The notes under the pieces were generated by a model, which made no database searches, was not told the origin of the DNA, and was given only the letters and a program-made list of their open reading frames with translations. From positions 634 to 64,633 of the forward strand of contig CAVPHZ010000002.1 in assembly GCA_963704905.1 (NCBI GenBank): a DNA stretch of 64,000 nt. The letters are read 5' to 3'. The DNA is from Candidatus Chisholmbacteria bacterium. GTDB lineage: Bacteria > Patescibacteriota > Microgenomatia > UBA1400 > Chisholmbacteraceae. A program made the position numbers and the translations under genes. Below are positions 13,036 to 32,554 of this stretch, in pieces. Each line of letters starts with the position of its first letter. The first letter of the stretch is position 1.

Positions 13036-15342
13036 ATGAACAGGAAACATATAGTCCTGCTATTGGCATTTTTTATTTTTATTCCATTTATTATTTATTG
13101 GAAAATTCCACTCTTAGGTCTCATTCCATTTCCCGGAGATCTCCTAGTAGGAAGATTTTTTCCATTCAATTCTGTGGAGTGGCTAGGGTATCCAAATGGC
13201 GTGCCGTATAAAGAATTCATCAACGCTGATGTAGTCAGACAGCTCTATCCATGGAGAAATCTAGCCATCACTACGCTTAAAAGCGGTCAACTCCCAGGAT
13301 GGAATCCTTATGCATTTTCAGGAAATCCTCTTCTTGCAAATATTCAATCGGCCGCATTTTATCCCTTAAATATTCTCTATTGGTTGATGAGCCATCAATC
13401 AGCGTGGATCGTTGGAGTTCTTCTCCAACCCATACTAGCAATGATCTTTATGTATATGTTTACCAAAGAGTTAAAGTTCTCGTCACCAGCGTCAATTCTA
13501 TCAAGCCTAGCATTTGCCTTCAGTGGGTATATGGTAGTCTGGTGGGAGTTTAATACTGTTGGTCATGCTGCACTTTGGGCTCCACTTATATTGTGGGCTA
13601 TTGAGCGATTTAAACAATCGAAGCACTCGAAATATCTCATAGTCATATCATTTGCACTTTCAGCATCTTTGCTGGCTGGACATCTCCAGACCTCGATCTA
13701 TGTGACGATCATCTCAATCACTTATGCCGCCTTTCGGTTATCACAAGAAGAAAGACGATCTCTGCTTGCAGTCAAACTAATAATTGCTATGACAACAAGC
13801 ATTCTCATTGCTTTTCCACAGTTGCTACCAGCCTTGAAATTTGCTCCACTCACGCCAAGAGGTACACAACCGGATGCTGAAATCTTCATGCAGTTTAGAA
13901 TACCTCTCGAAAATCTCATAACATTCTTATCTCACGACTACTTTGGAAATCCAGCGGTAAACAACTTCTGGGGAAAAGATTATGGAGAATTCATGGCATA
14001 TTTTGGAGTCATCGCATTTATCATGAGTCTCTTTGCACTGCAAAACAATGATAGAAAAACCAAGTATTTTTTCGTTATAGCTGGTCTTGCGCTCATCTCA
14101 GCTCTAAAAACACCACTTCCTCTTCTACTTCATAAAATGAACATTCCAGTTCTCTCAACAAGTGCACCATCTCGAGCTGTATTTATCGTTCACTTTGCAG
14201 CAAGTGTGCTGGCTGGGTATGGTTTTGATGCTTGGAAAAAATACAATATCAATAATATAAAGAAAACTCTAATTCTGGTGGTGCTGATCTTTGCAGCTGC
14301 GTGGATTGTCGCGTTCATTGGATCTTTAAGTTCAGATCTAGCGCATTCAGCGCAATGGAAAGTCTCGCTGAGAAATCTCATCATCCCAACCGGCATTGCT
14401 ATAGCACTATCCGCACTCACGGTTATAAAAGATCATGACTATGTTAGGTCATTCAAATATATTTGGAAGCCGAGCCTCATTGTGTTGTTTTCTTTAGTCA
14501 TTGGAGAATATGTGTATTTTGCCAACAAATATCAGACTTTTTCCGAACCACAATTTTTCTTTCCCAAATCACCAGTCTACGAATATTTGCGAAACGAAAC
14601 TCGGGAGATACCCTATCGATTTTTCGGGGATTACACCGCTTCTGTCACTAGTAATTCTTGGTTACCTTATAATGTATATGGTGTAGAAGGCTATGATGGG
14701 CTTTACTTAAGACGTTATGGTGAGTTATTGATATCTTCACATGAAGGGAAAATACCGGTATCAGTACCAAGATCAGATGCGAACCTTAAAACAAACAGTG
14801 ACGATGTACGACGTAGACGCTTGCAGGACCTTTTAGGAGTGAAGTTCATTCTTGATAAAAATGATTATCCGCAGAGTGATTGGGATCCAGATCCGGTGCG
14901 CTTTCCGGAGGATCGCTATCAACTCATCTGGCAAAAAGGAAAGTTTAAAGTATATGAGAATCTGCAGGTCTTCCCAAGGGCATATCTAGTATCGAATTAT
15001 CTGGTAGAAAAAGAACCTCAAAATATTATTGATATCATTTTCAATGAGAACATCGATCTAACAAAAACCTTGGTTTTAGAAGAAGATATTAAAAAAACAT
15101 TAGAGGCTTCTGAAGGATTAGTACAATTTCAGACCTATGCTCCCAACATCATTGAGCTAGTTGTGGATACCCCAACGCAGCAATTGTTATTCCTTTCAGA
15201 CTCTTTCCATCCAGATTGGCAGGCTTTTGTCGATCAAGATGAGGTGGAAGTCTATAGAGCAGATTATGCATTTAGAGCTATCCTCATTCCTTCAGGGCAG
15301 CATAAAATTAAATTTACGTACAAACCGACCTTTCTTAGATGA
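13036..15342 (+). CDS. YfhO-family GT-C membrane glycosyltransferase
   Basis: YfhO N-terminal loop signature ...LPGWNPYAFSGNPLLANIQSAAFYPLNILYW, many TM segments, and a C-terminal extracytoplasmic domain with FHPDWQAFVDQDEVEVYRADYAFRAILIPSGQHKIKFTYKP. Confidence 0.85.
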   Translation: MNRKHIVLLLAFFIFIPFIIYWKIPLLGLIPFPGDLLVGRFFPFNSVEWLGYPNGVPYKEFINADVVRQLYPWRNLAITTLKSGQLPGWNPYAFSGNPLLANIQSAAFYPLNILYWLMSHQSAWIVGVLLQPILAMIFMYMFTKELKFSSPASILSSLAFAFSGYMVVWWEFNTVGHAALWAPLILWAIERFKQSKHSKYLIVISFALSASLLAGHLQTSIYVTIISITYAAFRLSQEERRSLLAVKLIIAMTTSILIAFPQLLPALKFAPLTPRGTQPDAEIFMQFRIPLENLITFLSHDYFGNPAVNNFWGKDYGEFMAYFGVIAFIMSLFALQNNDRKTKYFFVIAGLALISALKTPLPLLLHKMNIPVLSTSAPSRAVFIVHFAASVLAGYGFDAWKKYNINNIKKTLILVVLIFAAAWIVAFIGSLSSDLAHSAQWKVSLRNLIIPTGIAIALSALTVIKDHDYVRSFKYIWKPSLIVLFSLVIGEYVYFANKYQTFSEPQFFFPKSPVYEYLRNETREIPYRFFGDYTASVTSNSWLPYNVYGVEGYDGLYLRRYGELLISSHEGKIPVSVPRSDANLKTNSDDVRRRRLQDLLGVKFILDKNDYPQSDWDPDPVRFPEDRYQLIWQKGKFKVYENLQVFPRAYLVSNYLVEKEPQNIIDIIFNENIDLTKTLVLEEDIKKTLEASEGLVQFQTYAPNIIELVVDTPTQQLLFLSDSFHPDWQAFVDQDEVEVYRADYAFRAILIPSGQHKIKFTYKPTFLR

Positions 15343-17702
15343 AGCCAAAGATTAATAAATTATTCCCACTTGGAATTGTGTTCCTTTTTTCTTGCCTGAT
15401 CTTTTGGAAATCAATTGTTTATGGATTAGTGCCTATTCCATTCGATCAACTAGTGACCGGTTTTTTTCCATATAACAATGGTGGATGGACTCAAGTGGGT
15501 GCATTTCCACAACCAAAAGGTGGTTGGTATGCAGTCGATGCCATCCGTCAAATGTACCCTTGGAAAGAATTAGTGATCGATCAACTAAAGAATGGACAGA
15601 TTCCTCTTTGGAATCCATATAATTTTTCCGGATATCCTTTGCTTGCAAATATCCAATCTGCAGTCTTCTACCCGCTCAACTTAGTCTTTCTTATCCCATC
15701 TTTTCCCTGGTCTTGGACTGCGTACATTGCGCTTGCTGTACTGCTACCTGCGTACTTTATGTTTCATTTCCTCAGATCATTGGATCGATCACCATTGGCA
15801 TCAGTAATTAGTGCGATTGCATTTGCAGGAGCTGGGCAAATGATTGACTGGCTCGAGTGGGGGGTGATCACTCACACATTCATTTGGCTTCCGCTGTCAC
15901 TATATTCGATAAACAGATTCACACAGAAAAAAGATAAGAAATACTTATTACTCTTTATCTTTAGCATCATCTCAGCGATCTTTTCAGGATATCCACAAAG
16001 AGCTGCCTACAGTCTTATTGTTATTGTATTGTGGATTTTCATGAAATGGAGATCTCAAAAAAAATCTTCAATGAAACATCTAGTACCGATTTCCATGGCA
16101 TTCCTGCTCGCAATCAGCATGACAGCTGTGCAGTGGATTCCGACCGCTGAGTTTTACTTTCATTCGGCTATGCGGGGAGAAGTATCTGAACAGTTAAGCG
16201 AAAGAGGGGGTCTTCCTTGGCAGCAACTGGCAACTATTTTTGCTCCCGATTACTTTGGAAATCGGGTCACCAATAACTATTGGGCCAAAGACTTTGGAAA
16301 CATCGATTACATGGATGCTGATTTGTACATAGGGGCATCAGTAATTCCACTCATACTCTTAGCAATCTTTAGCCTCAAAAATAATAAACATATAAAATTT
16401 CTCACAATTCTGACCGTCATTGGCTTGCTGCTAGGTATCCGTAGTCCAATCTCAGGTATCGTCTCAGGTCTTGGAATTCCAGTGATCAGCACAGGCGTTG
16501 CCTCAGAGGCACTTATTATCACAGTTTTCTCTCTGGCTGCGCTCGCTGCATTTGGTTTTGATGATTTAAAAAGTGAAATCAGTTTTAAAAGACGATTAAC
16601 CTCAATTACAATAACCGGCGCAATCTATGCTCTTTTAATCTTTATGAGTCTCACATTTGATCAGGATAAAACAAGAACTGCATTACGAAATCTCGTTGTA
16701 CCAGGCACAGCTTTTCTTGGTGGAGCCGGTGCAATGATTGTCTTTATCAAGTTCAAGAAATCAACAATCCCGGCATTGCTGTTTATCGGATTCCTCTCAG
16801 TTGAACTACTGTTCCACTCAAATAAGATGCTTTCATTCTCTTCTCCAAACTTAGCGTATCCAGAACACATCCTCTTCAGTGAATTAAATAGCATTGCTGG
16901 CAATGATCGTGTTGCAGGATTTTGGGAAACTGAGATCTCTCCAAATATTCAAACCGCTGTGAGGATGAATTCAATTGAAGGATACGATCCTCTCTACATT
17001 TTACGTTACGGGGAGTTTATAAGTTCAGCTCAACAAGGAAGGTTAGAAAAGATAATTCCTAGGTCCGACGCAGATCTTGAACAGAAAAATGAGCAGAATC
17101 GCAACCGTGTTCTTGACTTAACCAGCGTAAAATATATACCTGCTAAAGTCACCAAATCTGATGAACTTTGGGAGCAAGAACCATTGAAGTACAATCCGCA
17201 GCGTTTCAAACTCGTCTGGCTGCAGGATCGTTTCAAGATCTATGAAAATCTTCACGCTCTCCCGAGAGTCAAGCTCTATTCAGATTGGGAGGTTATAGAA
17301 AGCGATGAGCAGATCATCGAAAAACTCTACGATCCAACCTTCAATCCTCAATCAACAGTAATTCTTGAACACCAGCCCCTACTTAAAGGTTCCGAACCTT
17401 TAAACGGAAAAGTAAGGATAACCTCATATGAACCGAATCGTGTTGATATTGAATCACAGTCAAATATACCAGCAATTCTTCTCCTCACAGATTCTTATTA
17501 TCCTGGCTGGAAAGCCACGGTTGATGAGAAACCTGTAGATATACTTCGTGCCAATTACACTTTTCGTGCGATTGAAGTTCCAGAAGGGAATCATAATATT
17601 ACTTTCAGTTATCAGCCAATTAGCTTCAAAGTCGGGTCCTTAATAAGTATTGTAAGTACTATTGTTGTAAGCGGACTAATCTACACTAAGAAAATATTAT
17701 GA
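15339..17702 (+). CDS. YfhO-family GT-C membrane glycosyltransferase (tandem paralog)
   Basis: IPLWNPYNFSGYPLLANIQSAVFYPLNLVFL and C-terminal YYPGWKATVDEKPVDILRANYTFRAIEVPEGNHNITFSYQP. ATGA coupling to the upstream paralog. Confidence 0.85.
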   Translation: MKPKINKLFPLGIVFLFSCLIFWKSIVYGLVPIPFDQLVTGFFPYNNGGWTQVGAFPQPKGGWYAVDAIRQMYPWKELVIDQLKNGQIPLWNPYNFSGYPLLANIQSAVFYPLNLVFLIPSFPWSWTAYIALAVLLPAYFMFHFLRSLDRSPLASVISAIAFAGAGQMIDWLEWGVITHTFIWLPLSLYSINRFTQKKDKKYLLLFIFSIISAIFSGYPQRAAYSLIVIVLWIFMKWRSQKKSSMKHLVPISMAFLLAISMTAVQWIPTAEFYFHSAMRGEVSEQLSERGGLPWQQLATIFAPDYFGNRVTNNYWAKDFGNIDYMDADLYIGASVIPLILLAIFSLKNNKHIKFLTILTVIGLLLGIRSPISGIVSGLGIPVISTGVASEALIITVFSLAALAAFGFDDLKSEISFKRRLTSITITGAIYALLIFMSLTFDQDKTRTALRNLVVPGTAFLGGAGAMIVFIKFKKSTIPALLFIGFLSVELLFHSNKMLSFSSPNLAYPEHILFSELNSIAGNDRVAGFWETEISPNIQTAVRMNSIEGYDPLYILRYGEFISSAQQGRLEKIIPRSDADLEQKNEQNRNRVLDLTSVKYIPAKVTKSDELWEQEPLKYNPQRFKLVWLQDRFKIYENLHALPRVKLYSDWEVIESDEQIIEKLYDPTFNPQSTVILEHQPLLKGSEPLNGKVRITSYEPNRVDIESQSNIPAILLLTDSYYPGWKATVDEKPVDILRANYTFRAIEVPEGNHNITFSYQPISFKVGSLISIVSTIVVSGLIYTKKIL

Positions 17703-18337
17703 TGATCACTGATTTGTACAAGAAATATTCCATTCCAACAAATCTCCAACAGCATATGTTTCGTGTCGCTGCATTGGGAAACATTATTTGCGATCATCTA
17801 AGAAATATTCAAGCAGATAAAGATATCATTACTCAAATGCTGTTACTTCATGACATGGGGAATATTCTCAAATTCGATTTTTCGAATCTAGATTTATTTG
17901 ATGAGGAGGACAAAAGCCAGATCGATAAATACAGAAAAGCTCAGCACGAATTTAAAAAGAAATACGGTAATCATCCAGATGAAGCGACGGTAAGTATCAT
18001 TGAGGAAACTGCATCAAATTCGAAAGTGTTAGAACTTTATAAAAATAGCCATTGGGAAAATGCTAAGGATTTTGTGAATTCAGAACATTGGGACAGAAAA
18101 ATTGCCTGCTACAGCGACATGAGAATTGGACCGTTTGGAATATTGAGTCTCAAAGAGAGATTTGACAATCTCATCAGCCGCCGACCGGAAACAAAACAAA
18201 GACTTAACGAGCTCTACTCAGACGGTAAAAAATTAGAGAAACAATTACAAGATACAACCACAAATAATCTTCTTACAATTGATGATGAAATACTCAATAA
18301 GAGATTTCAGTATCTTCAACATTTAAATATTAGCTAA
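17699..18337 (+). CDS. HD-domain metal-dependent phosphohydrolase
   Basis: H...HMFRVAALGNII...LLLHDMGN is the HD-superfamily H...HD motif. The predicted protein is soluble. ATGA-coupled to the preceding YfhO gene. Confidence 0.7.
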   Translation: MMITDLYKKYSIPTNLQQHMFRVAALGNIICDHLRNIQADKDIITQMLLLHDMGNILKFDFSNLDLFDEEDKSQIDKYRKAQHEFKKKYGNHPDEATVSIIEETASNSKVLELYKNSHWENAKDFVNSEHWDRKIACYSDMRIGPFGILSLKERFDNLISRRPETKQRLNELYSDGKKLEKQLQDTTTNNLLTIDDEILNKRFQYLQHLNIS

Positions 18338-18435: not shown

Positions 18436-21153
18436 ATGAAAAAGAAACGAAATTCATCAATGTATAAGTGGATTCTGGTTATTGTTCTGCTTTCACTTTT
18501 CATCATTTGGCCGATGTTCCGGTCCGGATACTGGGAGAGTGATGATGGGGAGTGGATGGTGATTCGCTTTTCAGCCTTTCATGAATCACTAACAGATGGT
18601 CATTTTCCAGTTCGCTGGACGCAGAGGTTAAATCACGAGTTTGGCTATCCGGTCATGAATTTCTTGTATCCACTCCCGTTTTATCTTGCTGAATTGCCAA
18701 AGACACTTGGACTTGGTTTTGTTGATAGTGTCAAAGTCGTATTTGCCTCAAGTGTCGTAATCTCTGGTATTGGTATGTTTCTCTATGCCAAAAAGTGGGG
18801 AAGATTGGAAGGATTGCTTGCTTCAATCTTGTATTTATTCGCTCCATATCGCTTTTTTGTCCTCTACACCAGGGGATCATTAGGGGAGAGTGTAGCACTT
18901 GCCTTTGTACCTTTTCTATTTTATTTATTAGATCGACTTTTCAAGAAACCAAATATGAATAATACTTTGTTAAGCGGCATCATATACGCCACACTCATCA
19001 TGTCGCACAATGTTATCGCACTATTATTCACACCCATCGCCATACTGTACGTCTTCTTCAAACGAACAAGTAAAAAATTTTCACTTACCTATCCCCTTTT
19101 TGCCCTCACTATTGGTCTGTTACTTTCAGCATTTTTCTGGCTACCAGCGATAGCTGAACTGCAATACACCAGAGCAGCGAACCTCGTAATCTCCAACTAC
19201 AGCCAGTATCTTTTAAATGATCCACAGCTCATCTCACGACTTGGGCCAATTCACATGTTTGTTATAGCGGCAGGGTTAATTCTTGGTGCAAAATTCTTTT
19301 CAATCATTGGAATAGTCGTTGCATTTCTGATGCATACAAGCTTCAGTCATATTACGCAGTTTGTACCATTAATTCAAAAAATACAATTTCCATGGAGAAT
19401 GAGCACCGTATTCATGTTTGCTTCAGCCGCAACTGGAGCAAAGGTAATAAGCTCTAAACAAATTAAGAAGCGAGTCAAACCATTTATTGTCATCATCATT
19501 GGTGCGATATTTATTGCATTGTCATTCAATCAAACATACGGCATTAGATACGTTTCAAGAGATGAAGGGTTTTATACAACTAATGATGATACGACGACAG
19601 TGCAAAATGAATTCACGCCAATTTGGGTAATGAATGATCCAAAAAACAAAGTTGACCAGATGTTTGAGATTAAGTCTCATTCGGGAAAGTATGAAATTAC
19701 TGGTGAAGACCATCGAACTGGCTTTCACTTTTTCCAAATCCGCCTTAAAGACGAGGTGATCATTAAGGCTAATATTCATTACTTTCCTGGGTGGGAAATC
19801 TATGTTGATGATAAGAGAATAGAGCTAGATCCATCTCAAACTAATGACCTCTTAGAAGTCTTAGTTACGCCAATAGAATTTAAACTCAGAGATGTTAAAT
19901 TTGTCTTTGAATCAACGCCAATTCGCAAAATTTCAGAGTGGATTTCGATAATTGCTGCGGTTGGAATCACTGCATATTTCATATTCAAATATTTCGGAAA
20001 AAAAGATTGGAAAAAAGCATTGGGGATAACCACTGGAACCATTGCTATCCTAACGATAACGTTCTTTCTGCTGTCAAATCTTCATACATTTAGTGACACC
20101 TTTGACCCGAGAATTTCAGAACAAAAATATCTCAACTCTCAATGGATTGAAGGCGATGCAGGAAAAAATGTTCCCATAGGAGATAGTGGATTATATGCTT
20201 GGGCAGGATGGGAATATGTTCACGGAATAAATCCAATTCTCATTAATCCAGAAATGCCACCGATGGGAAAATACATCATTGGATTGGGGTTGTTGACACT
20301 TCACAGACCTGCAGTCATTGGCCTTATTTTTAACGGCTTTGCACTTCTCTCTCACTTTTTCTTAGCTAAAGAAGTAGTGAAGAATAAATGGCTAGCTATT
20401 ACATCAACCGCCCTTTTATCAACCGAGCCCATCATGAGAAACTTGCTCAACCTAACCATGCTTGATGGTCTACAATTGGGTTTTCTTAACCTAAGTTTCT
20501 TATTTTTCATAAAAGGCTTAAAAAATAAACCCTGGTTTATTCTCTCCTCGCTCATGCTTGGTGCGATGGCGTCTACCAAATTTTATGCTTCATCAGCTTC
20601 TGTTATTGGAAGCCTACTTTTATATCTAATAATTTCTCGAAAGTGGAGAGAATTGTGGTACTTCACATTCACCTTGCCAATAGTTGCCCTCGTACATACA
20701 TTTCAGTACATTGTTTACTTTCTAGACGGGAACTCACTGAGAGGATATCTCGGTGTACAAAAATGGATCTATACATTTTACAAACAAGGGAATGTCGGAA
20801 CGATTCCTGCCGGTTCATACTGGTTACTTGTGCTATTTAATCGCTGGAGAGTCTGGTTTACCGATGAGTGGGGCGTCTATAAAACGATTACCAGTGATTT
20901 GTGGAGATTTTCTTGGCCATTGAATTTATTTGCTGTATGTTCCTCAGTTTACCTATCCCTCAAAAAGCAGTTTCAGGAAGGTCAAAATGTTCTCATTATC
21001 TGGTTGCTTGTTTACAGCGGGTTCCTGACCTTCGTCATTGGCTGGCCACATTACATGCTACTCTATTTGCCTTTCAGTTATATCTTGCTTGTCTCCCTTA
21101 TTGATAAACTCGCACCTATTACCTTGAAAAGACTGGAAAAATGGAAAAAGTAA
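18436..21153 (+). CDS. large GT-C-like polytopic membrane protein, divergent YfhO-related family (C-terminal PGW domain); paralog of 21141 and 53800 genes
   Basis: N-terminal signature SGYWESDDGEWMVIRFSAFHESLTDGHFPVRWTQ...GYPVMNFLYPLPFYL, at least 12 TM segments, and C-terminal HYFPGWEIYVDDKRIELD as in the YfhO C-terminal domain. 905 aa. Confidence 0.6.
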   Translation: MKKKRNSSMYKWILVIVLLSLFIIWPMFRSGYWESDDGEWMVIRFSAFHESLTDGHFPVRWTQRLNHEFGYPVMNFLYPLPFYLAELPKTLGLGFVDSVKVVFASSVVISGIGMFLYAKKWGRLEGLLASILYLFAPYRFFVLYTRGSLGESVALAFVPFLFYLLDRLFKKPNMNNTLLSGIIYATLIMSHNVIALLFTPIAILYVFFKRTSKKFSLTYPLFALTIGLLLSAFFWLPAIAELQYTRAANLVISNYSQYLLNDPQLISRLGPIHMFVIAAGLILGAKFFSIIGIVVAFLMHTSFSHITQFVPLIQKIQFPWRMSTVFMFASAATGAKVISSKQIKKRVKPFIVIIIGAIFIALSFNQTYGIRYVSRDEGFYTTNDDTTTVQNEFTPIWVMNDPKNKVDQMFEIKSHSGKYEITGEDHRTGFHFFQIRLKDEVIIKANIHYFPGWEIYVDDKRIELDPSQTNDLLEVLVTPIEFKLRDVKFVFESTPIRKISEWISIIAAVGITAYFIFKYFGKKDWKKALGITTGTIAILTITFFLLSNLHTFSDTFDPRISEQKYLNSQWIEGDAGKNVPIGDSGLYAWAGWEYVHGINPILINPEMPPMGKYIIGLGLLTLHRPAVIGLIFNGFALLSHFFLAKEVVKNKWLAITSTALLSTEPIMRNLLNLTMLDGLQLGFLNLSFLFFIKGLKNKPWFILSSLMLGAMASTKFYASSASVIGSLLLYLIISRKWRELWYFTFTLPIVALVHTFQYIVYFLDGNSLRGYLGVQKWIYTFYKQGNVGTIPAGSYWLLVLFNRWRVWFTDEWGVYKTITSDLWRFSWPLNLFAVCSSVYLSLKKQFQEGQNVLIIWLLVYSGFLTFVIGWPHYMLLYLPFSYILLVSLIDKLAPITLKRLEKWKK

Positions 21154-22895
21154 ATTCTTTACTCAAGCGTCATTGGGCATTCATCGTCATTGTCTTTCTG
21201 ACAATTCCAGCCATGCTTCCATTATTCAAATCTGGATTCTTTCCCATACATGATGATCAACAGGTGGTTCGATTATTTGAACTGGATCGATCGCTTGCCG
21301 CTGGCCAATTTCCTGCCCGGTGGGTTAAGAATCTTGGCTTTGGATTTGGTTATCCATTATTTATTTTTTATCCACCTTTCATCTACTACCTTGGGGAAAT
21401 ATTTCACCTTGGTTTGGGAACAGGATTTATCGATTCAATAAAATTGGTCTTCGCAGCCGCATTTATTGGGGCAGCATATTCTATGTATCTTTGGGTAAAA
21501 GAGCATTTCGGTAAAGTACCGGCAATTGTTGCCGCAGCATTGTATACCTACGCGCCATATCATGCAGTTGATGCATATGTAAGAGGTGCGCTTGCTGAGC
21601 TCATGTCGTTTGTCTGGCTACCTGTAATTTTACTCGCTACAGATCGGTTAATCACAAAAAAACAAAAGCACTATTGGCTGTGGCTGGGAGTTTTTCTCGC
21701 ACTTCTGATGATCACGCATAATCTTATCTTTCTACCATTTTTCCCACTCTTTCTGATTTACGCTGGCTTTCTCCTTCTAAAAACAACTAATAAAACACCC
21801 CATATACTACATACTATTTACGCTATACTCTTAGCCCTTGGACTCAGTGCCTTCTTCTGGATTCCAGCACTTATTGAAAAGCAATACACGTTGGTAGATT
21901 CAATCTTGCTTTCAGAACTGGCCAGTTACAAACTACATTTTGTTGAGTTACAACAACTATGGAACTCTCTTTGGGGATTCGGCGGCTCAACCGCCGGTCT
22001 CTTAGACGGTCTATCGTTTAAAATTGGTAAACTCCATGTAGTTCTTTCAATATTCTCGGTAGCTGTTTTGGGAGTTTACTACAAGCAGACGCGAGAAAAA
22101 CCAATAACATATTCTGTATTTATTGTCTCAATTCTTACTCTCCTAAGTGTATTCCTCACAACTGTGTTTTCTCAAGTCATCTGGGAAATAGCTAGTCCAC
22201 TGCAATTCCTCCAATTTCCCTGGAGATTCCTGACATTTATCGTTCTTGGTTCTGCATTCCTCTCAGCCGGTTTTATTTATGCCTTCGAGATCATACTCAA
22301 AAACTCACTCGCAACACTTGTCCTAGTGATTACGGTTCTTATTCTTTTATTCATTCCAAACCTCAAACTCTTTGCACCCCAGTCATATCTTGATGTAACT
22401 GATAGCTATTACACATCAGATGATTTCATTAAATGGAGAATCAGCAAAACCAGTTTTGAATTTGTACCAAAAGGAGTTAAAACAACTACGGAATATCAAC
22501 AACTTGAAAATAAAGAGATCACTCAGGTTGCAATAAGCGAAAATGAAATTCGAAAAACAGCATATGAAGTTCTCAGCGGAAATGTTGAAGTAAGTATTGT
22601 CCAAGATAATCCCGGAAATATCATACTAGAAACAAAATCAAGCCAAGAAAGCCAAGTTCAGCTCAATACATTTGATTTCCCTGGCTGGTCGGTACGATTG
22701 GATAGGGAAAATATTCAGCACAGTTCTCAAAATGATTTACATTTGATACGGGTAAATATTCCTGACGGTGAACACACGATTGAAGCAAGATTCTCAGAAA
22801 CCCCAGTAAGAAAGCTTTCAGACCTCATAACTCTCTCATCTCTTGGTATTTTCTTCTACTTTTTATTTAATGAGTACTTACTTAATAAGAAGTGA
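21141..22895 (+). CDS. GT-C-like polytopic membrane protein, divergent YfhO-related family (paralog of 18436/53800)
   Basis: SGFFPIHDDQQVVRLFELDRSLAAGQFPARWVKNLGFGFGYPLFIFYPPFIYYL...YTYAPYHAVDAYVRGALAE, with C-terminal FDFPGWSVRLDRENI. Confidence 0.6.
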   Translation: MEKVNSLLKRHWAFIVIVFLTIPAMLPLFKSGFFPIHDDQQVVRLFELDRSLAAGQFPARWVKNLGFGFGYPLFIFYPPFIYYLGEIFHLGLGTGFIDSIKLVFAAAFIGAAYSMYLWVKEHFGKVPAIVAAALYTYAPYHAVDAYVRGALAELMSFVWLPVILLATDRLITKKQKHYWLWLGVFLALLMITHNLIFLPFFPLFLIYAGFLLLKTTNKTPHILHTIYAILLALGLSAFFWIPALIEKQYTLVDSILLSELASYKLHFVELQQLWNSLWGFGGSTAGLLDGLSFKIGKLHVVLSIFSVAVLGVYYKQTREKPITYSVFIVSILTLLSVFLTTVFSQVIWEIASPLQFLQFPWRFLTFIVLGSAFLSAGFIYAFEIILKNSLATLVLVITVLILLFIPNLKLFAPQSYLDVTDSYYTSDDFIKWRISKTSFEFVPKGVKTTTEYQQLENKEITQVAISENEIRKTAYEVLSGNVEVSIVQDNPGNIILETKSSQESQVQLNTFDFPGWSVRLDRENIQHSSQNDLHLIRVNIPDGEHTIEARFSETPVRKLSDLITLSSLGIFFYFLFNEYLLNKK

Positions 22896-24427
22896 AAAAG
22901 TCTCGAAATGCAAAGCTACTCCCTCAAGAGCAGAAGCTCAAAAAGATCATTATAGTAAGTTGTGGTTTACTTCTAGTAGTCACCTTCTATCTTCATGCTC
23001 GACTGATAGTAATCAATGCTCCAATTGAACTCAGAGAAAGTGCAACTGTTCTTACCACCAGTGCATTACTCAAAGGCATCAACCCATTTTCGCTGGAACA
23101 CACACCGGAATTTATTAATGTACACGGAATTCTATACAACCTTGTTGTCTACCCGTTTGCTGCATTCTTCGGATCTACTTTTTTACTCCATCGTAACGTT
23201 TCTGCTTTTTTTATCTTCGCCTCAACTGTTTTGATTTATTTGGCGATATTGAAGGAGAGTCATTCTTCTTGGCTAGCATTTACAGCATCAGTTTTCATAT
23301 ATTCCCAGATCGTAATTGGCACACCGATTGGGATGTCAGGAGGTTTTGATGTGGTTTCACGACCGGATTCACTTGGAATGTTTTTGTTTTTAGCCAGCCT
23401 GCTCATACCATATTGGTTAAAGTTCAGTAATAGAGGATTAATAGTAGGTTTAACACTTGGAATATTGGCGTTTTTTGCAAAGCCGTACTTTATTCTCGGA
23501 CTTGTCTTTCTAGGCATTTACCTGTTTCTCTTCAATGCAAAGAAGACAGGTCTGATATTTTCACTAGGCGGAGTAGCGCTATTCATATTCGTTGCATGTA
23601 TCGTACAGTATTATTTTGAAACCTATTTTTTTAATGTTGTCCTCATCCATCATGGTATTCGTAGCTGGAGCTTTCCACATCTCATCAGCCAGATTAAGAC
23701 GATAGTTGTGTGGAATGGAGCACCATTAGCCGTGCTCATTTTGTGGCTAACGCAAAAGAAAGCAGCAAGAGTAAAAATTGACTATTTTTCATCAGCGCTG
23801 GTTTTTTTTACGATTATAACTGTTACGCTTTTCGGACCGCACATGGGAAATGCGATGAGCTACTTCACTCACCTCATCACACCTTTTCTGCTTATCTGGG
23901 TTTTTTCCAACATCCAAAATCCTCTATTCAACAAAGATCGCTTGTTTTTATATTTCCTGATAATCGTAAACGTAGGCATAGTGGGATTTGCAGCTACCTC
24001 ATACTATCCAAAAACTCAGATAAATAAGGCAGAGTGGAAGTGGTGGGAACAGCGGTTGAAAAAAAGTGAGAAAATATTTAACTCTTCAGCAACAGCTCAC
24101 ATAGTATTTGAGCAGAATAAGCAGCTCTATGATAATGGCCATTCTGAGTATCTAAAATATGGTCTTGAGACAAACGACAAACTTATGCTTGTACCAAGCG
24201 CAAGAGCTAAGCTGGAAGCGTATACAACTGATATACAGGGTAAAATTCACAGTCAGTTTTTCGACCTCGTTATCATCGGCGAAAATAGTTTTCCGGTCTT
24301 TTCCCGCCAAGAACTTGCCAAGACATATCAACTCGAAGACACGCGCCGAATCACCATGTACAAACAATCTTGGCTAGAAGAACTGTGGATTCCAAGAATC
24401 GATACAGAGGAGGTTAGTGAGAAATGA
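22892..24427 (+). CDS. polytopic membrane protein, uncharacterised (possibly another GT-C-like protein); GTG start
   Basis: 511 aa with about 12 hydrophobic segments and a roughly 150-aa hydrophilic C-terminal domain. No family signature recognised. GTGA overlap with the upstream stop. Confidence 0.5.
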   Translation: MKKSRNAKLLPQEQKLKKIIIVSCGLLLVVTFYLHARLIVINAPIELRESATVLTTSALLKGINPFSLEHTPEFINVHGILYNLVVYPFAAFFGSTFLLHRNVSAFFIFASTVLIYLAILKESHSSWLAFTASVFIYSQIVIGTPIGMSGGFDVVSRPDSLGMFLFLASLLIPYWLKFSNRGLIVGLTLGILAFFAKPYFILGLVFLGIYLFLFNAKKTGLIFSLGGVALFIFVACIVQYYFETYFFNVVLIHHGIRSWSFPHLISQIKTIVVWNGAPLAVLILWLTQKKAARVKIDYFSSALVFFTIITVTLFGPHMGNAMSYFTHLITPFLLIWVFSNIQNPLFNKDRLFLYFLIIVNVGIVGFAATSYYPKTQINKAEWKWWEQRLKKSEKIFNSSATAHIVFEQNKQLYDNGHSEYLKYGLETNDKLMLVPSARAKLEAYTTDIQGKIHSQFFDLVIIGENSFPVFSRQELAKTYQLEDTRRITMYKQSWLEELWIPRIDTEEVSEK

Positions 24428-25449
24428 GTAAGCTTTCAATCTGGGCAAATCTATGTCCAAGAAAGTTATTTTGGGAACTTCGTCAACTTGATGACACACC
24501 CGCTTCAATCAAGCCATGGTGGAAACAAACACAGATCCTCTATAAATGTCTTAAGCTGTTAAAAAACATTGGTATTGATGGTTTGCGTCTCAATATATTT
24601 AATCTGGAACTAACATCAGATGGAAAGCGAATACACTGGAATCGGTTAGAGAAGATCTTAGAAATGACCAGTAAACTAGGGTTGAAGATCGACTATTGTC
24701 TCGGGCCATTTCAATATCCTCAATGGCCAGGCATTCGTCTCCCGGAAAAGATACTTTCTTACTGTGATGGAAGATTAACTCTTGATGAGGTAGATGTCAT
24801 TAAAGAATTTGGTCTGAAATTTCTTGCATTGCAACTGAATCGTCTTGGAAATGATAAGAGAATTTCAAGTTTTTACTTGGGGAACGAATGGCCAAATCGT
24901 CAAGAGATAGAAGGAACTAAAGGCAAGTATATCTCAATCTCCAAAGACTTCATGTTGAAATCAGCAGAACTTTATAAAAACGTAACGAATAAACCAATAA
25001 TCATGAATACCAATATTGACGCAGGTGAAACAAAAAAACTCATAGAAGTTTTTTCTCCTTTTATAGATCTTCTGAGATCACAATTATGGATAGGTCTAGA
25101 TATTTACCCTTCCAGAGAGAACCTTCTGCATCATCCAAAGATATGGTGGCACCGAAAAAGAGGGAACTATATGAGCTCGATAGGAAGGCTCAAAGATGAA
25201 CTCACAAAGAACTTACTCTTTTCTGAAGTTGAAGCCCAACCATGGGGAAAAGGAGAATCATGGGTTGAATATTTCAAGTTAAAGATGGAAACCTACACCA
25301 AGAAAGATTTTAAGAATACAATGAATAACATTATTATCCCCTCGGGATTGGAAAAAACCACACTCTGGGGTGCAGAATTCTGGCTCCTCAGTCATTTTCT
25401 AGGCTTCAACTGGCCACTGAGGATAATTAATGAACTGACATCAACTTAA
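24424..25449 (+). CDS. soluble hypothetical protein, possibly TIM-barrel clan GH-A-like glycoside hydrolase
   Basis: No TM segments or signal peptide. Contains LGNEWPN (reminiscent of the GH-A acid/base 'NEP' motif) and a later EVEAQPWG. This is a weak, motif-only inference. ATGA coupled. Confidence 0.4.
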   Translation: MSKLSIWANLCPRKLFWELRQLDDTPASIKPWWKQTQILYKCLKLLKNIGIDGLRLNIFNLELTSDGKRIHWNRLEKILEMTSKLGLKIDYCLGPFQYPQWPGIRLPEKILSYCDGRLTLDEVDVIKEFGLKFLALQLNRLGNDKRISSFYLGNEWPNRQEIEGTKGKYISISKDFMLKSAELYKNVTNKPIIMNTNIDAGETKKLIEVFSPFIDLLRSQLWIGLDIYPSRENLLHHPKIWWHRKRGNYMSSIGRLKDELTKNLLFSEVEAQPWGKGESWVEYFKLKMETYTKKDFKNTMNNIIIPSGLEKTTLWGAEFWLLSHFLGFNWPLRIINELTST

Positions 25450-25461
25450 ATTCAACACTTT

Positions 25462-26970
25462 TTGAAATGCTACAATAGTTTCATGCAGGAACACACCCCT
25501 GAAGATCGCCTTCTGGAAGAAATCGATATTGAGGAAGTGAAGCATAGGTCTGTAAAAGGCGTCGTTGCCTTAGCTGGTCGAACTGGTTTTCTTCAGACAC
25601 TGACACTTGTAGCAACCTTCATGCTCACAGTATTTCTTTCCCCTCAGGAGTACGGTATATTTTTTGTGGTCTCAGCAGTAGTTAATTTTCTCATCTATTT
25701 TTCCGACATTGGTCTTGCAGCAGCGCTCATTCAAAAGAAAGAAAGTATTGAAGAGGATGATCTCGCTACAACCTTCACTATCCAACAGATGATGGTAGTA
25801 ACCCTTGTTGTAATTTCTCTTTGGGGCTCAGCACACATAGCAGGTTTCTATCAGTTGAGTCCTGGTGGTTTATCGCTCCTCCGTGCTTTGATCGTTGCAT
25901 TTTTCTTATCATCACTCAAAACAATTCCATCAATTATTCTTGAACGTAAACTTCAATTTAATAAACTAATAATTCCTCAAATTGTTGAAAATATTGTTTT
26001 TTATTCGGTAGCCGTCTACTTTGCCTGGCAAGGAAAGGGAGTTGAAAGTTTTACTGTAGCAGTTCTGCTCAGAGGATTATCGGGGTTGTTTGTTATGTAT
26101 CTCCTCCAACCATGGAGGCCAGCCTTCGCTTTCAAGAGAAAATCTGCCAAACAACTCCTGTCTTTTGGTGTTCCCTTTCAGGCCAATAGCTTGCTTGCAC
26201 TGGTAAAAGATGATTTACTCACAGCCTATTTAGGCAGAGTACTGACACTTGCTGAGGTAGGTTTTATCGGATGGGCACAGCGCTGGGCGCTAACTCCATT
26301 ACGGTTTTTCAGCGATAGCATCATCAAAGTCACCTTCCCAGCCTACTCACGGTTACAACACGAAAAGGAAGCACTAAAAAAGGCAGTAGAAAAATCCATA
26401 TTTGCAGTTGCTACAGTTGTCTTCCCATCCGTAGTTGGGTTAATAACCATTGCACCGGCAATGATTCAAATTATTCCCCGATATGAAAAGTGGCAACCTG
26501 CACTTCTATCACTAACTCTTTTTGGAGTGAATGCACTCTGGTCTTCAATTTCTACCACCCTTACCAATACGCTCAATGCAACCGGGCACATCAAAAAAAG
26601 CCTGATGCTCATGGTAATGTGGACGACGTTGACATGGGTGTTAACACCCGTACTTATAGCAGTAGTCGGATTCAATGGTGTTGCGTTGGCCTCAGCATTA
26701 ACAGCCACGTCCTCAATCGTTGCCATTTATCTCGTCAGAAAGATTGTCCAAATTGAGATCATGCCCAACATTACCGCACCGATCATTTCTACCGCAATGA
26801 TGGGCGCTCTCGTATATGCGCTTACGCCAGTACTAGCCTCTTCATTAGCTAGAATCGGTCTATTGATACTGACTGCTGTTATACTGTATGCGTTTTTAAT
26901 GATGTTGTTTGCGGGCAAAAAAGTGCTTCAAGAATTTGCTTTGGTTAGGAATTATTTAAAGACTAAATGA
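25462..26970 (+). CDS. Wzx-like polysaccharide/oligosaccharide flippase (MOP superfamily, Polysacc_synt family)
   Basis: 502 aa with about 12-14 TM segments; the N-terminal region VKHRSVKGVVALAGRTGFLQTLTLVATFMLTVFLSPQEYGIFFVVSAVVNFLIYFSDIGLAAALIQ is typical of Wzx/RfbX-type exporters. Confidence 0.75.
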   Translation: MKCYNSFMQEHTPEDRLLEEIDIEEVKHRSVKGVVALAGRTGFLQTLTLVATFMLTVFLSPQEYGIFFVVSAVVNFLIYFSDIGLAAALIQKKESIEEDDLATTFTIQQMMVVTLVVISLWGSAHIAGFYQLSPGGLSLLRALIVAFFLSSLKTIPSIILERKLQFNKLIIPQIVENIVFYSVAVYFAWQGKGVESFTVAVLLRGLSGLFVMYLLQPWRPAFAFKRKSAKQLLSFGVPFQANSLLALVKDDLLTAYLGRVLTLAEVGFIGWAQRWALTPLRFFSDSIIKVTFPAYSRLQHEKEALKKAVEKSIFAVATVVFPSVVGLITIAPAMIQIIPRYEKWQPALLSLTLFGVNALWSSISTTLTNTLNATGHIKKSLMLMVMWTTLTWVLTPVLIAVVGFNGVALASALTATSSIVAIYLVRKIVQIEIMPNITAPIISTAMMGALVYALTPVLASSLARIGLLILTAVILYAFLMMLFAGKKVLQEFALVRNYLKTK

Positions 26971-27875
26971 AAATATCGGTAGTAATCACCGCTCATAACG
27001 AGGAAAAGATGATTGAGGATTGCCTCAAGTCTGTAAACTGGGCAAATGAGATTATTCTCGTAGATAACGAATCAAGTGACAATACTGGCACAATTGCGAA
27101 AAAATTTACAGATAAAATATTCACTCATAAAAACGATCCAATAAATTTGAATGACAGCAAAAACTTTGGATTTACTAAGGCTTCCGGAGATTGGATCTTA
27201 AGTATAGATGCGGACGAACGAATTAGTCCTGAACTTCACAAAGAGATAATCCAAAGACTCATGGGCGCTCCTGACTATGTCGATGGCTATCTTATACCAA
27301 GAAAAAATATCATCTTTGGAAAATGGATTAAGCATGGTCTGTGGTATCCAGACCACCAACTGAGACTATTTAGAAAAGGTAAAGGAAAATTCCCAAGCAA
27401 ACACAACCACGAACTTCTTGAAGTTAAGGGTCAGACATTAGAACTTAAACAACACATCGTCCACCTCAACTACACCTCAGTAGATCAATATCTTAACAAA
27501 ATCGCTTATTACTACTCTGACAATGAAGCTGAACAATACCTCAATTCTGGGAAAAAGCTCCAGTGGTATGATGCTATTCGAATGCCAGCTTCAGATTTTC
27601 TCCTTAATTTCTTCGCCAGAAGTGGGTACAAAGACGGTTTACATGGGTTAGCATTGAGTTTACTGCAGTCGTTTTACATGTTCATTGTGTTTGCTAAAGT
27701 TTGGGAAAAACAAGGATTTTGGGAATACAATAGTAAAGAATTTCTTGAGGATACAAAAAAAGAATTCATTTCAAAAGGAAAAGAATTGCGGTACTGGATC
27801 AGTCGAACAAGGGAAGAAAATAGCGGCGATATTGAACGACTACTGTTGAAAGTCAAACGGAAACTACTTCCATGA
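26967..27875 (+). CDS. GT2 glycosyltransferase, WaaE/KdtX-like subfamily
   Basis: ISVVITAHNEEKMIEDCLKSVNWANEIILVDNESSDNTGTIAKKF...WILSIDADERISPEL. Paralogous to the 36140 and 55548 genes. Confidence 0.8.
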   Translation: MKISVVITAHNEEKMIEDCLKSVNWANEIILVDNESSDNTGTIAKKFTDKIFTHKNDPINLNDSKNFGFTKASGDWILSIDADERISPELHKEIIQRLMGAPDYVDGYLIPRKNIIFGKWIKHGLWYPDHQLRLFRKGKGKFPSKHNHELLEVKGQTLELKQHIVHLNYTSVDQYLNKIAYYYSDNEAEQYLNSGKKLQWYDAIRMPASDFLLNFFARSGYKDGLHGLALSLLQSFYMFIVFAKVWEKQGFWEYNSKEFLEDTKKEFISKGKELRYWISRTREENSGDIERLLLKVKRKLLP

Positions 27876-29014
27876 GTAGCCGAAGGGCATACGGAGTACT
27901 TCTCTTAATCATTACTCTTTTCTTTCTTTCATACCTTGTACAAGGACTTGGATTTTTATATGGAGATAACTTGGGTCAGAGAATTCCAGGCATATATTTT
28001 TGGAAAAATGAAGTAACCAGCGGACGATTACCACTTTGGAATCCATATATTCTTGGGGGATTACCTTTTCTCGCAGATCTTTCTCATAACGCGCTTTCAC
28101 CGACCAATATTGTCTATCTAGTAATGTCAGTTCCCTATGCTATTACCGCGTTAACAATAATCTACATCGCCATCGCAGCTTGTGCAACCTACGCGTATGT
28201 ACATAGCGTAACCAACAAAACGCTGCCGAGCATGTTTTCTGCGATTACATTTGCCCTATCAGGTACTGTAATCGCATCAGTAAATGACATCAACTCTTTG
28301 CAGGGTATTACACTTGTTCCGCTTGTGTTGTATGGAGCTCATCGTTTCACAGAAAAAGCAAACAATACCAGAGCATTAATACTTATCTTTGCATTAGTAT
28401 TTCAATTTTTATCCTCACATCCACAGTACAGTTACTACTCATGGATTCTGGTCGCAAGTTACATTGTTGTGTTTGGAACAGGGAAACTGAAAGTAAGAGT
28501 AGCAAAAACATTTGCTGTATTTCTCTTTACTCTCGGACTAATCGCCGTGCAGCTCTTACCTTTTTTAGAGCTTGCTCGAGAGTCATATCGTCCGCAAACA
28601 AGTGAGTTCGCAGCCCAAAATCAACTCAAAATCATTGAACTGCCATCATTTATACTCGCTGATCTATTCGGATCGTGGAGAAGTGGTTCATCTTGGGGTC
28701 CAGGAGCACAGTTAGAAACAGGTCTGGCAAATTCTGAGGGGTATCTTGGCATCCTACCGCTTTTGTTTGCGGTTATCGCAGTCTTAAAGAGGAAATCGAA
28801 ACGGACAAAGTATTGGGTTGTAGCAGGACTCATTGCACTTCTGCTGAGCCTAGGAAATCAAACACCGTTGTATGAATTAGTAAGGCGAGCCTTACCACTT
28901 TTTTCAAATTTCCGATCACCAATACGGATGTTATCTATCTACAGCTTCTCGGTATCAGTATTAGCTGGAGTAGGCCTTTCAGCAATTAAAGTGGAAAGGA
29001 AAAGGAAGAAATGA
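27872..29014 (+). CDS. YfhO-like GT-C membrane protein, N-terminal half (split gene)
   Basis: GRLPLWNPYILGGLPFLADLSHNALSPTNIVYLVMS is the YfhO loop signature. The protein ends after SFSVSVLAGVGLSAIK, the position where full-length paralogs continue (compare FAASVLAGYGFDAW in the 13036 protein). Confidence 0.7.
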   Translation: MSSRRAYGVLLLIITLFFLSYLVQGLGFLYGDNLGQRIPGIYFWKNEVTSGRLPLWNPYILGGLPFLADLSHNALSPTNIVYLVMSVPYAITALTIIYIAIAACATYAYVHSVTNKTLPSMFSAITFALSGTVIASVNDINSLQGITLVPLVLYGAHRFTEKANNTRALILIFALVFQFLSSHPQYSYYSWILVASYIVVFGTGKLKVRVAKTFAVFLFTLGLIAVQLLPFLELARESYRPQTSEFAAQNQLKIIELPSFILADLFGSWRSGSSWGPGAQLETGLANSEGYLGILPLLFAVIAVLKRKSKRTKYWVVAGLIALLLSLGNQTPLYELVRRALPLFSNFRSPIRMLSIYSFSVSVLAGVGLSAIKVERKRKK

Positions 29015-32503: not shown

Positions 32504-32554
32504 AATTTTCTCAACAGGTTTGTCTATAATAGCAGGAGAGAACCTATTCTAGCT

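Follow-up and report, generated by a model that had tools for sequence, protein, structure and literature searches.

Three paralogous membrane proteins from a Chisholmbacteria gene cluster as probable PF10131-family GT-C glycosyltransferases related to YfhO

Three open reading frames on the forward strand of the 64,000-nucleotide stretch of DNA analysed here (the window) encode related membrane proteins, which we call A (18436-21153, 905 aa), B (21141-22895, 584 aa) and C (53800-55551, 583 aa); coordinates and sizes agree with the initial annotation. A comprises two GT-C modules, B is a single-module PF10131/YfhO-like GT-C protein with 12 transmembrane (TM) helices and both termini inside, and C is a third paralog with the architecture of B. 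Pairwise BLASTP showed true paralogy, with identities of 28-31% across about 570 aa and E values from 1e-56 to 3e-72: B and C were 30% identical over 574 columns (E = 3e-72), and residues 14-520 of A were 28% identical to B (E = 1e-56). Module 1 of A, B and C are anciently diverged paralogs within one large uncharacterised GT-C family. A and B share 13 nt where B begins, the end of B overlaps the next gene by 4 nt, and C has a 4-nt overlap with a GT2 gene on either side. All three genes sit within a very large gene cluster for sugar coating, carried by an ultra-small bacterium that is uncultured.

The shared motifs reported at first were present in all three proteins. The first-loop motif reads SDDG...R...DGHFPVRW...GYP...LYPLPFY in A, HDD...R...AGQFPARW...GYP...FYPPFIY in B and HDG...R...EGQFPPQL...GFP...IYPLPY in C. 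In B, the first extracytoplasmic loop (residues 30-95; 21228-21425, + strand), placed by conservation, the positive-inside rule and alignment to YfhO, contains H37-D38, R44, G55-Q56-F57-P58, R60-W61, G70-Y71-P72 and P79, with D38 as the putative catalytic Asp. A second block, APY(R/H)...Y(V/T)RG(A/S)L(A/G)E, occupies residues 136-151 of A, 138-153 of B and 139-154 of C. Its fuller form in B, YxYAPY(H/R)...YVRGALAE (residues 133-153; 21537-21599, + strand), lies where TM3 and TM4 end on the outer side and is a candidate phosphate- or sugar-binding site. The extracytoplasmic beta-sandwich of B (residues 411-554; 22371-22802, + strand) bears E440 and FPGW at 513-516, is homologous to the YfhO C-terminal domain, and is followed directly by the closing TM helix (residues 555-583; 22803-22889, + strand). 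Module 1 of A (residues 1-525; 18436-20010, + strand) is PF10131/YfhO-like and has a K/R-rich cytoplasmic N-terminus, an outside loop 1 with D36-D37 and R44, APYR...YTRGSLGE as its second block, FPWR at 318, a beta-sandwich with FPGW at 450-453 and a closing TM helix at 499-521. The corresponding landmarks in C are H38-D39, APYR at 139, YVRGALAE at 147, FPWR at 365 and FPGW at 490-493. Conservation was scored over 463 full-length modules of the family, which are 24-100% identical to B: D38 and R362 were 100% conserved, R44 and R148 99%, H37 and W361 98%, E153 96% and the FPGW residues 84-98% (B numbering). Conservation of these motifs in the family is far beyond chance or composition.

GT-C superfamily enzymes have 8-13 TM helices, and their first extracytoplasmic loop carries a conserved acidic residue (a modified DxD). 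The AF2 model of B (pLDDT 90.5, pTM 0.92) has 12 helices, the last two of which (11 and 12) flank a small beta-sandwich, the 'PGW' domain (strands within 448-551, closing helix 555-583). The density of K+R was 0.297 in loops predicted to lie inside and 0.055 in those predicted outside, which fits an N-in/C-in topology, and by the same positive-inside rule all invariant polar residues are predicted on the outside, as the initial annotation had wished to see checked for those of the first loop. Foldseek with this model, another check it had proposed, returned GT-C enzymes only as significant matches, oligosaccharyltransferases at the top, with TM-scores to solved structures of just 0.4-0.48. Helix count, the loop-1 acidic residue (D38) and the structural likeness between this membrane core and those of solved GT-C enzymes all accord with GT-C membership. 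The solved comparators (Pmt4/Pmt1-Pmt2, AglB/STT3/PglB, AftA/AftD, ArnT and ALG9/ALG12) share 9-14% sequence identity, and there was no sequence-level match among PDB chains. Unlike the solved enzymes, the family lacks WWDYG, MIR or CBM domains and has a small outside beta-sandwich before the final TM helix. Durairaj et al. (Nature 2023; PMC10584680) described a further large bacterial family of YfhO-like glycosyltransferases, 'Component 27', whose members carry the annotation 'YfhO family' or none that is characterised. Structure and sequence networks set it apart as a family of its own, functionally 'dark', and its structural position is intermediate between YfhO and STT3/PglB. Compared by description only, its median length is 665 aa, whereas the proteins here are about 530-590 aa and match PF10131.

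A link to the 'PTPS-related' membrane proteins, offered initially as a guess, was borne out. PF10131 matched A at 43.1 bits and B at 37.8 bits, both exceeding the gathering threshold of 26.4 bits, and C at 25.9 bits, 0.5 below it. It also matched 29 of 35 relatives (E ≤ 1e-3). One relative is called '6-pyruvoyl-tetrahydropterin synthase-related protein' by NCBI, and both NCBI and JGI annotate relatives as PTPS-related. The matches of A, B and C were not full-length, covering only profile positions ~2-319 of 621, and the C-terminal half of the three proteins matches the YfhO C-terminal domain, not the C-terminal half of PF10131. PF09586 (YfhO; threshold 28.5 bits) matched none of A, B and C at E ≤ 1, nor any of the 35 relatives, and no NCBIfam model matched A, B or C directly. 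C also has a weak Pfam STT3 match (E = 0.0019). A confident match to a family of known function, which the initial annotation had named as counting against its proposal, was thus obtained in part: the superfamily is known, as is YfhO, the nearest family, but PF10131, a member of GT-C clan CL0111, is of unknown function (PMC7801869). It has no characterised member, and membership therefore confers no function.

The relation to YfhO was examined with a canonical paralog whose gene belongs to the run that contains A and B (15339-17702, + strand, 787 aa, PF09586 79 bits) and two further YfhO genes in the window (13036-15342 and 38844-41093). By hhalign, the N-terminal 244 residues of the family, comprising TM1 and the GQFP.RW...GYP...FYP loop, aligned with the YfhO N-terminus (A2 positions 6-244 against YfhO 1-268) at 98.8% (E = 1.3e-16). 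The score was 137 against YfhO and 68 against the window's PMT_2 family, whose alignment omits the loop motif; other local GT-C families in the window gave nothing on profile comparison with the N-terminus. The C-terminal PGW domain aligned with that of the window YfhO at 97.8% (E = 1.1e-12), so the YfhO-like C-terminus first noticed reflects true homology. Composition as its source was excluded by column shuffling (score 75.4 v at most 17.7 in 30 shuffles; shuffled probability at most 1.5%). N-terminally as well as C-terminally the proteins thus run collinear with YfhO, and on these alignments module 1 of A, B and C form a compact sister lineage of YfhO, not a chimera.

The YfhO family, whose named members include B. 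subtilis YfhO, L. monocytogenes Lmo1079 and streptococcal PgtC2, PgfM1 and PgfM2, shares with A, B and C a GT-C membrane core, a homologous loop 1 (D...GQ.P.W....G.P....FYP) and an outside domain between the last two helices, which ends in a beta-sandwich bearing (Y/F)PGW..(V).D and is succeeded by a closing helix. YfhO genes adjoin GT-A/GT2 polyprenyl-phosphate-sugar synthase genes, an arrangement resembled here at C, and four YfhO genes lie within the cluster of A, B and C. In contrast, the family is about 200 aa shorter than YfhO, and its loop 1 lacks an insert of ~30 aa. Its outside domain, in the same position, measures ~140 aa; in YfhO the domain reaches ~265 aa (the window's protein) or 389 aa (B. 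subtilis; PMC5836110), so that the large (~260-390 aa) YfhO-type extracytoplasmic domain is absent. The initial view that the loop and TM3/TM4 motifs are foreign to YfhO held for one of them: the loop is homologous, whereas YVRGALAE is family-specific and stands where YfhO has its conserved W.EW....HT block. The family has so far been found mainly in CPR/Microgenomates metagenomes.

A candidate YfhO-type GT2 operon partner (of the CsbB, GtrB or PgfS type) is present at C but absent beside A and B, which have no directly adjacent GT2 of the polyprenyl-phosphate-sugar-synthase type, the nearest GT2 lying ~4 kb downstream. The gene upstream of C (53060-53803, + strand, 247 aa, ATGA overlap with the C start) has polyprenyl-phosphate-sugar synthases as its best full-length matches (AglJ, PpgS, Dol-P-hexose transferase and PgfS), matches the DPMS 5mlz weakly, and is kept in the orthologous loci L003 and L004; it is the probable maker of a lipid-linked donor. 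A second GT2 gene downstream (55548-56339, + strand, 263 aa, 4-nt overlap) is also kept beside C orthologs. Elsewhere in the cluster, a GT2 fused to a GtrA/DPMS-type TM domain (2659-3555, + strand) is a DPMS-like polyprenyl-phosphate-sugar synthase or flippase-type component. This gene and the GT2 genes flanking C lend indirect support to a polyprenyl-phosphate-linked donor. A Wzx-type flippase gene (25462-26970, + strand; Polysacc_synt_3, 179 bits) belongs to the run of overlapping genes that includes A and B, 2.5 kb downstream of B. Synteny of A and B with YfhO, Wzx and GT2 genes is conserved in Chisholmbacteria, where the Wzx-type gene comes straight after the B ortholog.

A, B and C are probably uncharacterised representatives of an established class, the outside-facing, lipid-sugar-dependent glycosyltransferases. 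In our analysis they would be PF10131-family GT-C enzymes, sister to YfhO, that move a sugar outside the cell from a polyprenyl-phosphate-sugar (probability about 0.72), and their most likely function would be extracytoplasmic sugar transfer from such a donor to a surface glycan or protein. Paralogy, the fold and its topology, the PF10131 assignment, kinship with YfhO at either end, and the conservation of residues and of gene neighbourhoods are shown here; we infer catalysis, donor type and acceptor, with YfhO, PgfM1, PgtC2, ArnT and PMT as mechanistic analogues. A cytoplasmic GT2, such as that at 53060-53803, would place a sugar on polyprenyl phosphate, and the lipid-sugar would flip across the membrane. 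Arg, Glu and His are predicted to cluster at the outer membrane face and the invariant His-Asp to sit on the first outside loop; the conserved Arg/His could hold the phosphate of the lipid-sugar while the loop-1 Asp activates an acceptor hydroxyl near the beta-sandwich, moving one sugar outside the cell. Candidate acceptors would be a cell-surface glycan or a surface, S-layer or pilus protein, and A, B and C presumably differ in sugar, linkage or acceptor. Genetics of the YfhO family points to Und-P-sugar from a GT-A partner, with teichoic acids (PMC5836110) or Ser/Thr-rich protein regions (PMC12041528) as acceptors.

It is unlikely, though likelier than the two further alternatives below, that the three proteins resemble oligosaccharyltransferases or ligases and move a Wzx-flipped oligosaccharide en bloc from undecaprenyl-pyrophosphate to protein or glycan. 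The donors of oligosaccharyltransferases are pyrophosphate-linked oligosaccharides. The best Foldseek matches belong to this class, C matches STT3 weakly, the flippase gene shares the gene run of A and B, and neither Wzy nor WaaL was recognised among the window's genes. However, a WWDYG-type motif is absent from all three proteins by a regular-expression search (WWD or W[WFY]D[YFW]G); the outside domain in the model is a 140-aa beta-sandwich, not a mixed alpha/beta domain as in oligosaccharyltransferases; C lies between GT2 genes of the polyprenyl-phosphate-sugar-synthase type; and the homology at both ends is to YfhO, which uses Und-P-monosaccharides (PMC5836110, PMC12041528).

The initial annotation had seen a domain-shuffled protein, with a novel non-YfhO N-terminal TM module grafted onto a YfhO-type PGW domain. 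The N-terminal half does match PF10131 and PMT_2 but not PF09586, the C-terminal half resembles YfhO alone, and YVRGALAE has no sequence counterpart in YfhO. Yet the N-terminus itself, loop motif included, is homologous to YfhO and aligns with it better than with every other GT-C family in the window, and the order of elements (TM core, beta-sandwich between the last two helices, closing helix) is that of YfhO. Some more distant relatives of ~530-560 aa have precomputed matches to both PF10131 and PF09586, as expected for a continuum and not for a junction. Grafting, largely refuted by homology at both ends and collinear order, is thus very improbable, while the PTPS-related kinship and the YfhO C-terminus of the initial interpretation stand. 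A loop-1 Asp is characteristic of active GT-C enzymes, and we consider it highly unlikely that A, B and C are non-catalytic scaffolds, flippases or pseudo-enzymes on the GT-C fold, like PIG-U/GAB1 in GPI transamidase, given an outside-facing polar set that includes this Asp and is near-perfectly conserved in the 463 modules down to 24% identity, and genes tightly coupled by translation to GT2 genes.

Returning to the glycosyltransferase reading, the extra 320 aa of A, overlooked initially, form a second complete GT-C module of ArnT/PMT_2 type (residues 526-905; 20011-21153, + strand), whose own first loop has an invariant D583 (IGDSGLY), E606 and K612 (PPMGKY). The fusion of the two modules is conserved, and the linker between them is short, K-rich and cytoplasmic, so both first loops face outside. 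With this second ArnT/PMT-like module in the same chain, A probably performs two successive or coupled transfers. Relatives contain two to at least four GT-C modules per polypeptide (P0138, P0246, P0265 with 1,670 aa and P0254 with 3,329 aa). We suggest, tentatively and as a possibility on the unlikely side, that A and these relatives are multi-active-site 'assembly-line' GT-C enzymes, passing a growing glycan between outside-facing sites. If so, the product of the cluster, with its at least 20 GT-C modules, would be an extracytoplasmic coat of glycan or glycoprotein that is unusually complex, and this coat would have a central part in the episymbiotic life of CPR bacteria.

Three open reading frames on the forward strand, ORF A (18436-21153, 905 aa), ORF B (21141-22895, 584 aa) and ORF C (53800-55551, 583 aa), were found exactly where the initial annotation had placed a set of paralogous membrane proteins, and all of the motifs it quoted are visible in their three-way alignment. 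B and C are 30% identical over their full length (BLASTP, E 3e-72), and residues 14-520 of A are 28% identical to B (E 1e-56). The first-loop motif reads (H/D)D...R...G(Q/H)FP.(R)W...G(Y/F)P...(F)YP(P/L), a second common block reads APY(R/H)...Y(V/T)RG.L.E, and FPGW...D lies close to the C-terminus; beyond these, the three proteins share an additional FPWR motif. The Pfam family PF10131 (PTPS_related) scored 43.1 bits in A, 37.8 in B and 25.9 in C, the last just under the gathering threshold of 26.4, with the match covering only profile positions about 2-319 of 621 and with weaker PMT_2 or STT3 matches beside it. No NCBIfam model matched A, B or C, and a sequence search of all PDB chains with B and with a 35-sequence family profile matched nothing meaningful. 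Within the GT-C clan CL0111, PF10131 carries the entry 'function unknown' (PMC7801869). Relatives carry the public labels 'hypothetical protein', 'uncharacterized membrane protein', 'YfhO family protein' and '6-pyruvoyl-tetrahydropterin synthase-related protein', so that, with the PF10131 matches, the earlier guess at a PTPS-related link was correct.

It had also been suggested that these proteins carry a novel N-terminus grafted onto a YfhO-type C-terminal PGW domain, an extracytoplasmic beta-sandwich bearing the FPGW motif. The C-terminal half of this proposal held: the last 145 residues of the family matched the YfhO C-terminus with 97.8% probability (hhalign, E 1.1e-12, score 75.4), whereas 30 column-shuffled controls scored at most 17.7 with a probability of at most 1.5%, which rules out a composition-driven similarity and indicates true homology. 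The graft itself was not supported, because the N-terminus is also YfhO-like. In hhalign, the 35-sequence family alignment and one built from the three full-length YfhO proteins of the window matched over family positions 6-244 and YfhO 1-268, with 98.8% probability (E 1.3e-16). The HDDQ of the family falls on (P)xDQ of YfhO, GQFPvRW..GYP pairs with GQ.P.WNPY..G.P, and FYPP pairs with FYPL. The family profile scored 137 against YfhO v 68 against the window's seven PMT_2 proteins, the PMT_2 match beginning downstream of the loop motif, and gave no hhalign signal against the window's GT87, PIG-V-like or Pfam-less membrane ORFs. Thus, with both ends YfhO-like and collinear, the family to which B, C and the first module of A (residues 1-525) belong is, on these profile comparisons, a compact sister lineage of YfhO and not a graft. 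It differs from YfhO in that its first loop is ~30 residues shorter, its outside domain has about 140 aa where YfhO has 265-389 aa, and a YVRGALAE block takes the position of W.EW....HT.

We modelled B from the family alignment with AlphaFold2 (pLDDT 90.5, pTM 0.92). The model has twelve long helices, an outside region that contains short helices and a flexible segment (277-283), and an all-beta domain (448-551) followed by the last helix (555-583). At E ≤ 1e-3, Foldseek matches in the PDB were exclusively GT-C enzymes (AglB, STT3, AftD, AftA and Emb), with TM-scores of 0.38-0.48. Topology was taken from the AlphaFold2 helix boundaries and positive-inside statistics, as crude Kyte-Doolittle transmembrane prediction was too noisy. 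Using these boundaries in 35 sequences, the density of K+R was 0.297 in the loops placed in the cytoplasm v 0.055 in those placed outside. All invariant polar residues are predicted to lie outside or at an outer helix end. Among 463 full-length modules with 24-100% identity to B (median 32%), and in B numbering, D38 and R362 were each 100% conserved, R44 and R148 each 99%, H37 and W361 each 98%, R60 97%, E153 96%, E440 94% and H193 90%; the FPGW residues were 84-98% conserved. This combination of conservation and predicted topology is that expected of an active GT-C with an outside-facing site. By comparison with established GT-C structures, the acidic residue of the first loop would serve as the base or bind the acceptor, and the conserved basic residues would hold the lipid phosphate.

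When 1.84 billion cluster representatives were searched exhaustively with a profile, 23,612 proteins matched at E ≤ 1e-3, 14,639 at E ≤ 1e-10 and 6,875 at E ≤ 1e-30, the family size of >23,000 being counted in cluster representatives at 50% identity. Named relatives came from Candidatus Chisholmbacteria, Curtissbacteria, Levybacteria, Gottesmanbacteria and the 'Patescibacteria/Parcubacteria group'. In one Chisholmbacteria genome A, B and C each have their own ortholog (A2900_03115, A2900_03120 and A2900_03250; 53-60% identity), so the triplication is old.

The larger size of A noted in the initial annotation was borne out, but A is not simply a larger single unit, as its residues 526-905 form a second GT-C module. 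This region matches PMT_2 in Pfam (33.5 bits), and its first loop contains D583, E606 and K612 (A numbering), invariant residues within IGDSGLY...NPEMPPMGKY, a PMT/ArnT-type motif. After the closing helix of module 1 (499-521) come a K-rich linker and a new helix, so the first loops of both modules are predicted to lie outside. Sixteen relatives with 37-57% identity span 96-100% of A, and the Chisholmbacteria ortholog is 903 aa long, so the fusion is conserved and is not an assembly or gene-calling artefact. The family profile gave no hhalign signal against module 2, so module 2 is not an internal duplicate of module 1. Metagenomic relatives include predicted polypeptides (as gene calls) with two to at least four family or YfhO-like GT-C modules: P0138 (1,116 aa) and P0246 (1,093 aa) have two complete family modules in tandem, and P0265 (1,670 aa) and P0254 (3,329 aa) have more than two. 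We found nothing specific in the literature on GT-C expansions in CPR bacteria or on tandem GT-C fusions.

Genetic studies have shown that YfhO-family enzymes complete three-component systems, in which a GT-A makes an Und-P-sugar, a flippase moves it and the GT-C transfers the sugar outside the cell (PMC5836110, PMC12041528). The sugar is known to be accepted by lipoteichoic or wall teichoic acid (PMC5836110) and by Ser/Thr-rich, disordered segments of surface proteins (PMC12041528). By analogy, A module 1, B and C most likely (with a probability of about 0.7) perform YfhO-type chemistry and differ in sugar, linkage or acceptor; A would add a second, ArnT/PMT-like step through module 2. CPR bacteria are not known to make teichoic acids. 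The main rival, en-bloc transfer from an Und-PP-oligosaccharide, would fit the presence of AglB and STT3 among the structural matches and of Wzx in the neighbourhood. However, A, B and C lack the WWDYG motif, the outside domain is all-beta and the homology is specifically to YfhO, and on these grounds the oligosaccharyltransferase reading was down-weighted to unlikely.

The window (GC 39.9%) is a nearly unbroken run of mostly overlapping + strand genes, and in the cluster almost all genes share one strand and overlap by 4 nt. Pfam and NCBIfam scans identified at least 20 GT-C modules in the 64 kb: three PF10131-type, four YfhO (one split across two genes), nine PMT_2-type (A module 2 included), two GT87, one PIG-V-like and one ORF with a positional ortholog labelled MptA_B. 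These span five or six Pfam families (YfhO, PTPS_related, PMT_2, GT87, PIG-V-like and MptA_B-like). The cluster also contains about a dozen GT2, four GT4, two methyltransferases, one Wzx flippase, a GT2 fused to a GtrA/DPMS transmembrane domain, and a GDP-mannose 4,6-dehydratase with several sugar-nucleotide epimerases. C is flanked by GT2 genes with a 4-nt overlap on each side. The upstream GT2 (53060-53803) has AglJ, PpgS (full length), Dol-P-hexose transferase and PgfS as its best matches, all under equivalog cut-offs, which places it in the polyprenyl-phosphate-sugar-synthase type. The order PMT - PMT - GT2 - C - GT2 - GT4 - PIG-V-like is kept at two orthologous loci of C (L003 and L004) and partly at a third (L006), and the order YfhO x3 - A - B - Wzx - GT2 - split YfhO - GT2 - GT2 is kept in Chisholmbacteria.

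The split YfhO consists of overlapping genes at 27872-29014 and 29011-30153 (380 aa each), whose products are the N-terminal and C-terminal halves and match YfhO profile positions 61-357 and 754-835, respectively. The same split is present at the syntenic Chisholmbacteria locus L001 (14328-15494 and 15491-16618; 388 and 375 aa), so it looks like a true two-subunit YfhO and not a pseudogene. Three polytopic membrane ORFs in the cluster, 22892-24427 (511 aa), 32447-34480 (677 aa) and 34446-36143 (565 aa), had no significant Pfam match and gave no hhalign signal when compared with the PF10131-like family; the latter two have Pfam-less positional counterparts at L001 (648 and 567 aa). All three may belong to further GT-C, polymerase or ligase families that are as yet unrecognised. 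Membrane ORF 48446-49933 (495 aa) had no Pfam match in our local scan, and its positional ortholog in L003 and L004 is labelled PF26314 (MptA_B_family), a mannosyltransferase-type GT-C. ORF 24424-25449 (341 aa), between the GT-C genes and Wzx, had no Pfam match; by eye, its NEW(P) and E..PWG motifs recall a TIM-barrel glycoside hydrolase, and it is missing at the syntenic Chisholmbacteria locus.

Within the GT-C run, an HD-domain gene (17699-18337, 212 aa) shares 4 nt with the YfhO gene before it and ends 98 nt short of A. Because few intergenic gaps occur in this region of the cluster, this one may hold an internal promoter. Two listed starts are doubtful. The GT2-GtrA/DPMS-type fusion (2659-3555) matches the GT2 profile only from position 67, so its true start is probably upstream of the listed TTG, and the listed TTG of the GT4 gene 56276-57406 overlaps the upstream GT2 by 64 nt, where other nearby junctions are all 4 nt, so that this gene probably starts further downstream.

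Pfam (PF10131) already covers the family, annotation pipelines widely label it 'YfhO family' or 'PTPS-related', and it lies inside the well-known GT-C superfamily. As originally described, the finding thus adds little: the chimera idea, the source of the apparent unusualness, is unsupported, and the proteins are new, uncharacterised representatives of a known kind. Earlier work highlighted 'component 27' (Durairaj et al. 2023, PMC10584680), a 'dark YfhO-like' family comparable to this one. The value of the finding is as a pointer to a very large family without any characterised member, in which a sharp outside-facing residue set (H-D, R44, R60, R148, E153, H193, W-R362 and E440) and high-confidence models offer an easy target for mutagenesis. 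Here its genes belong to a cluster of roughly 60 kb that encodes at least 20 GT-C modules; the organism is a CPR bacterium with a small genome, and such bacteria are thought to depend on surface contacts with hosts. The features that most merit follow-up are the very dense packing of GT-C genes, the relatives with several modules and the conserved two-module fusion of A, an uncommon architecture of two different GT-C modules that could reveal how successive extracytoplasmic glycosylation steps are coupled.
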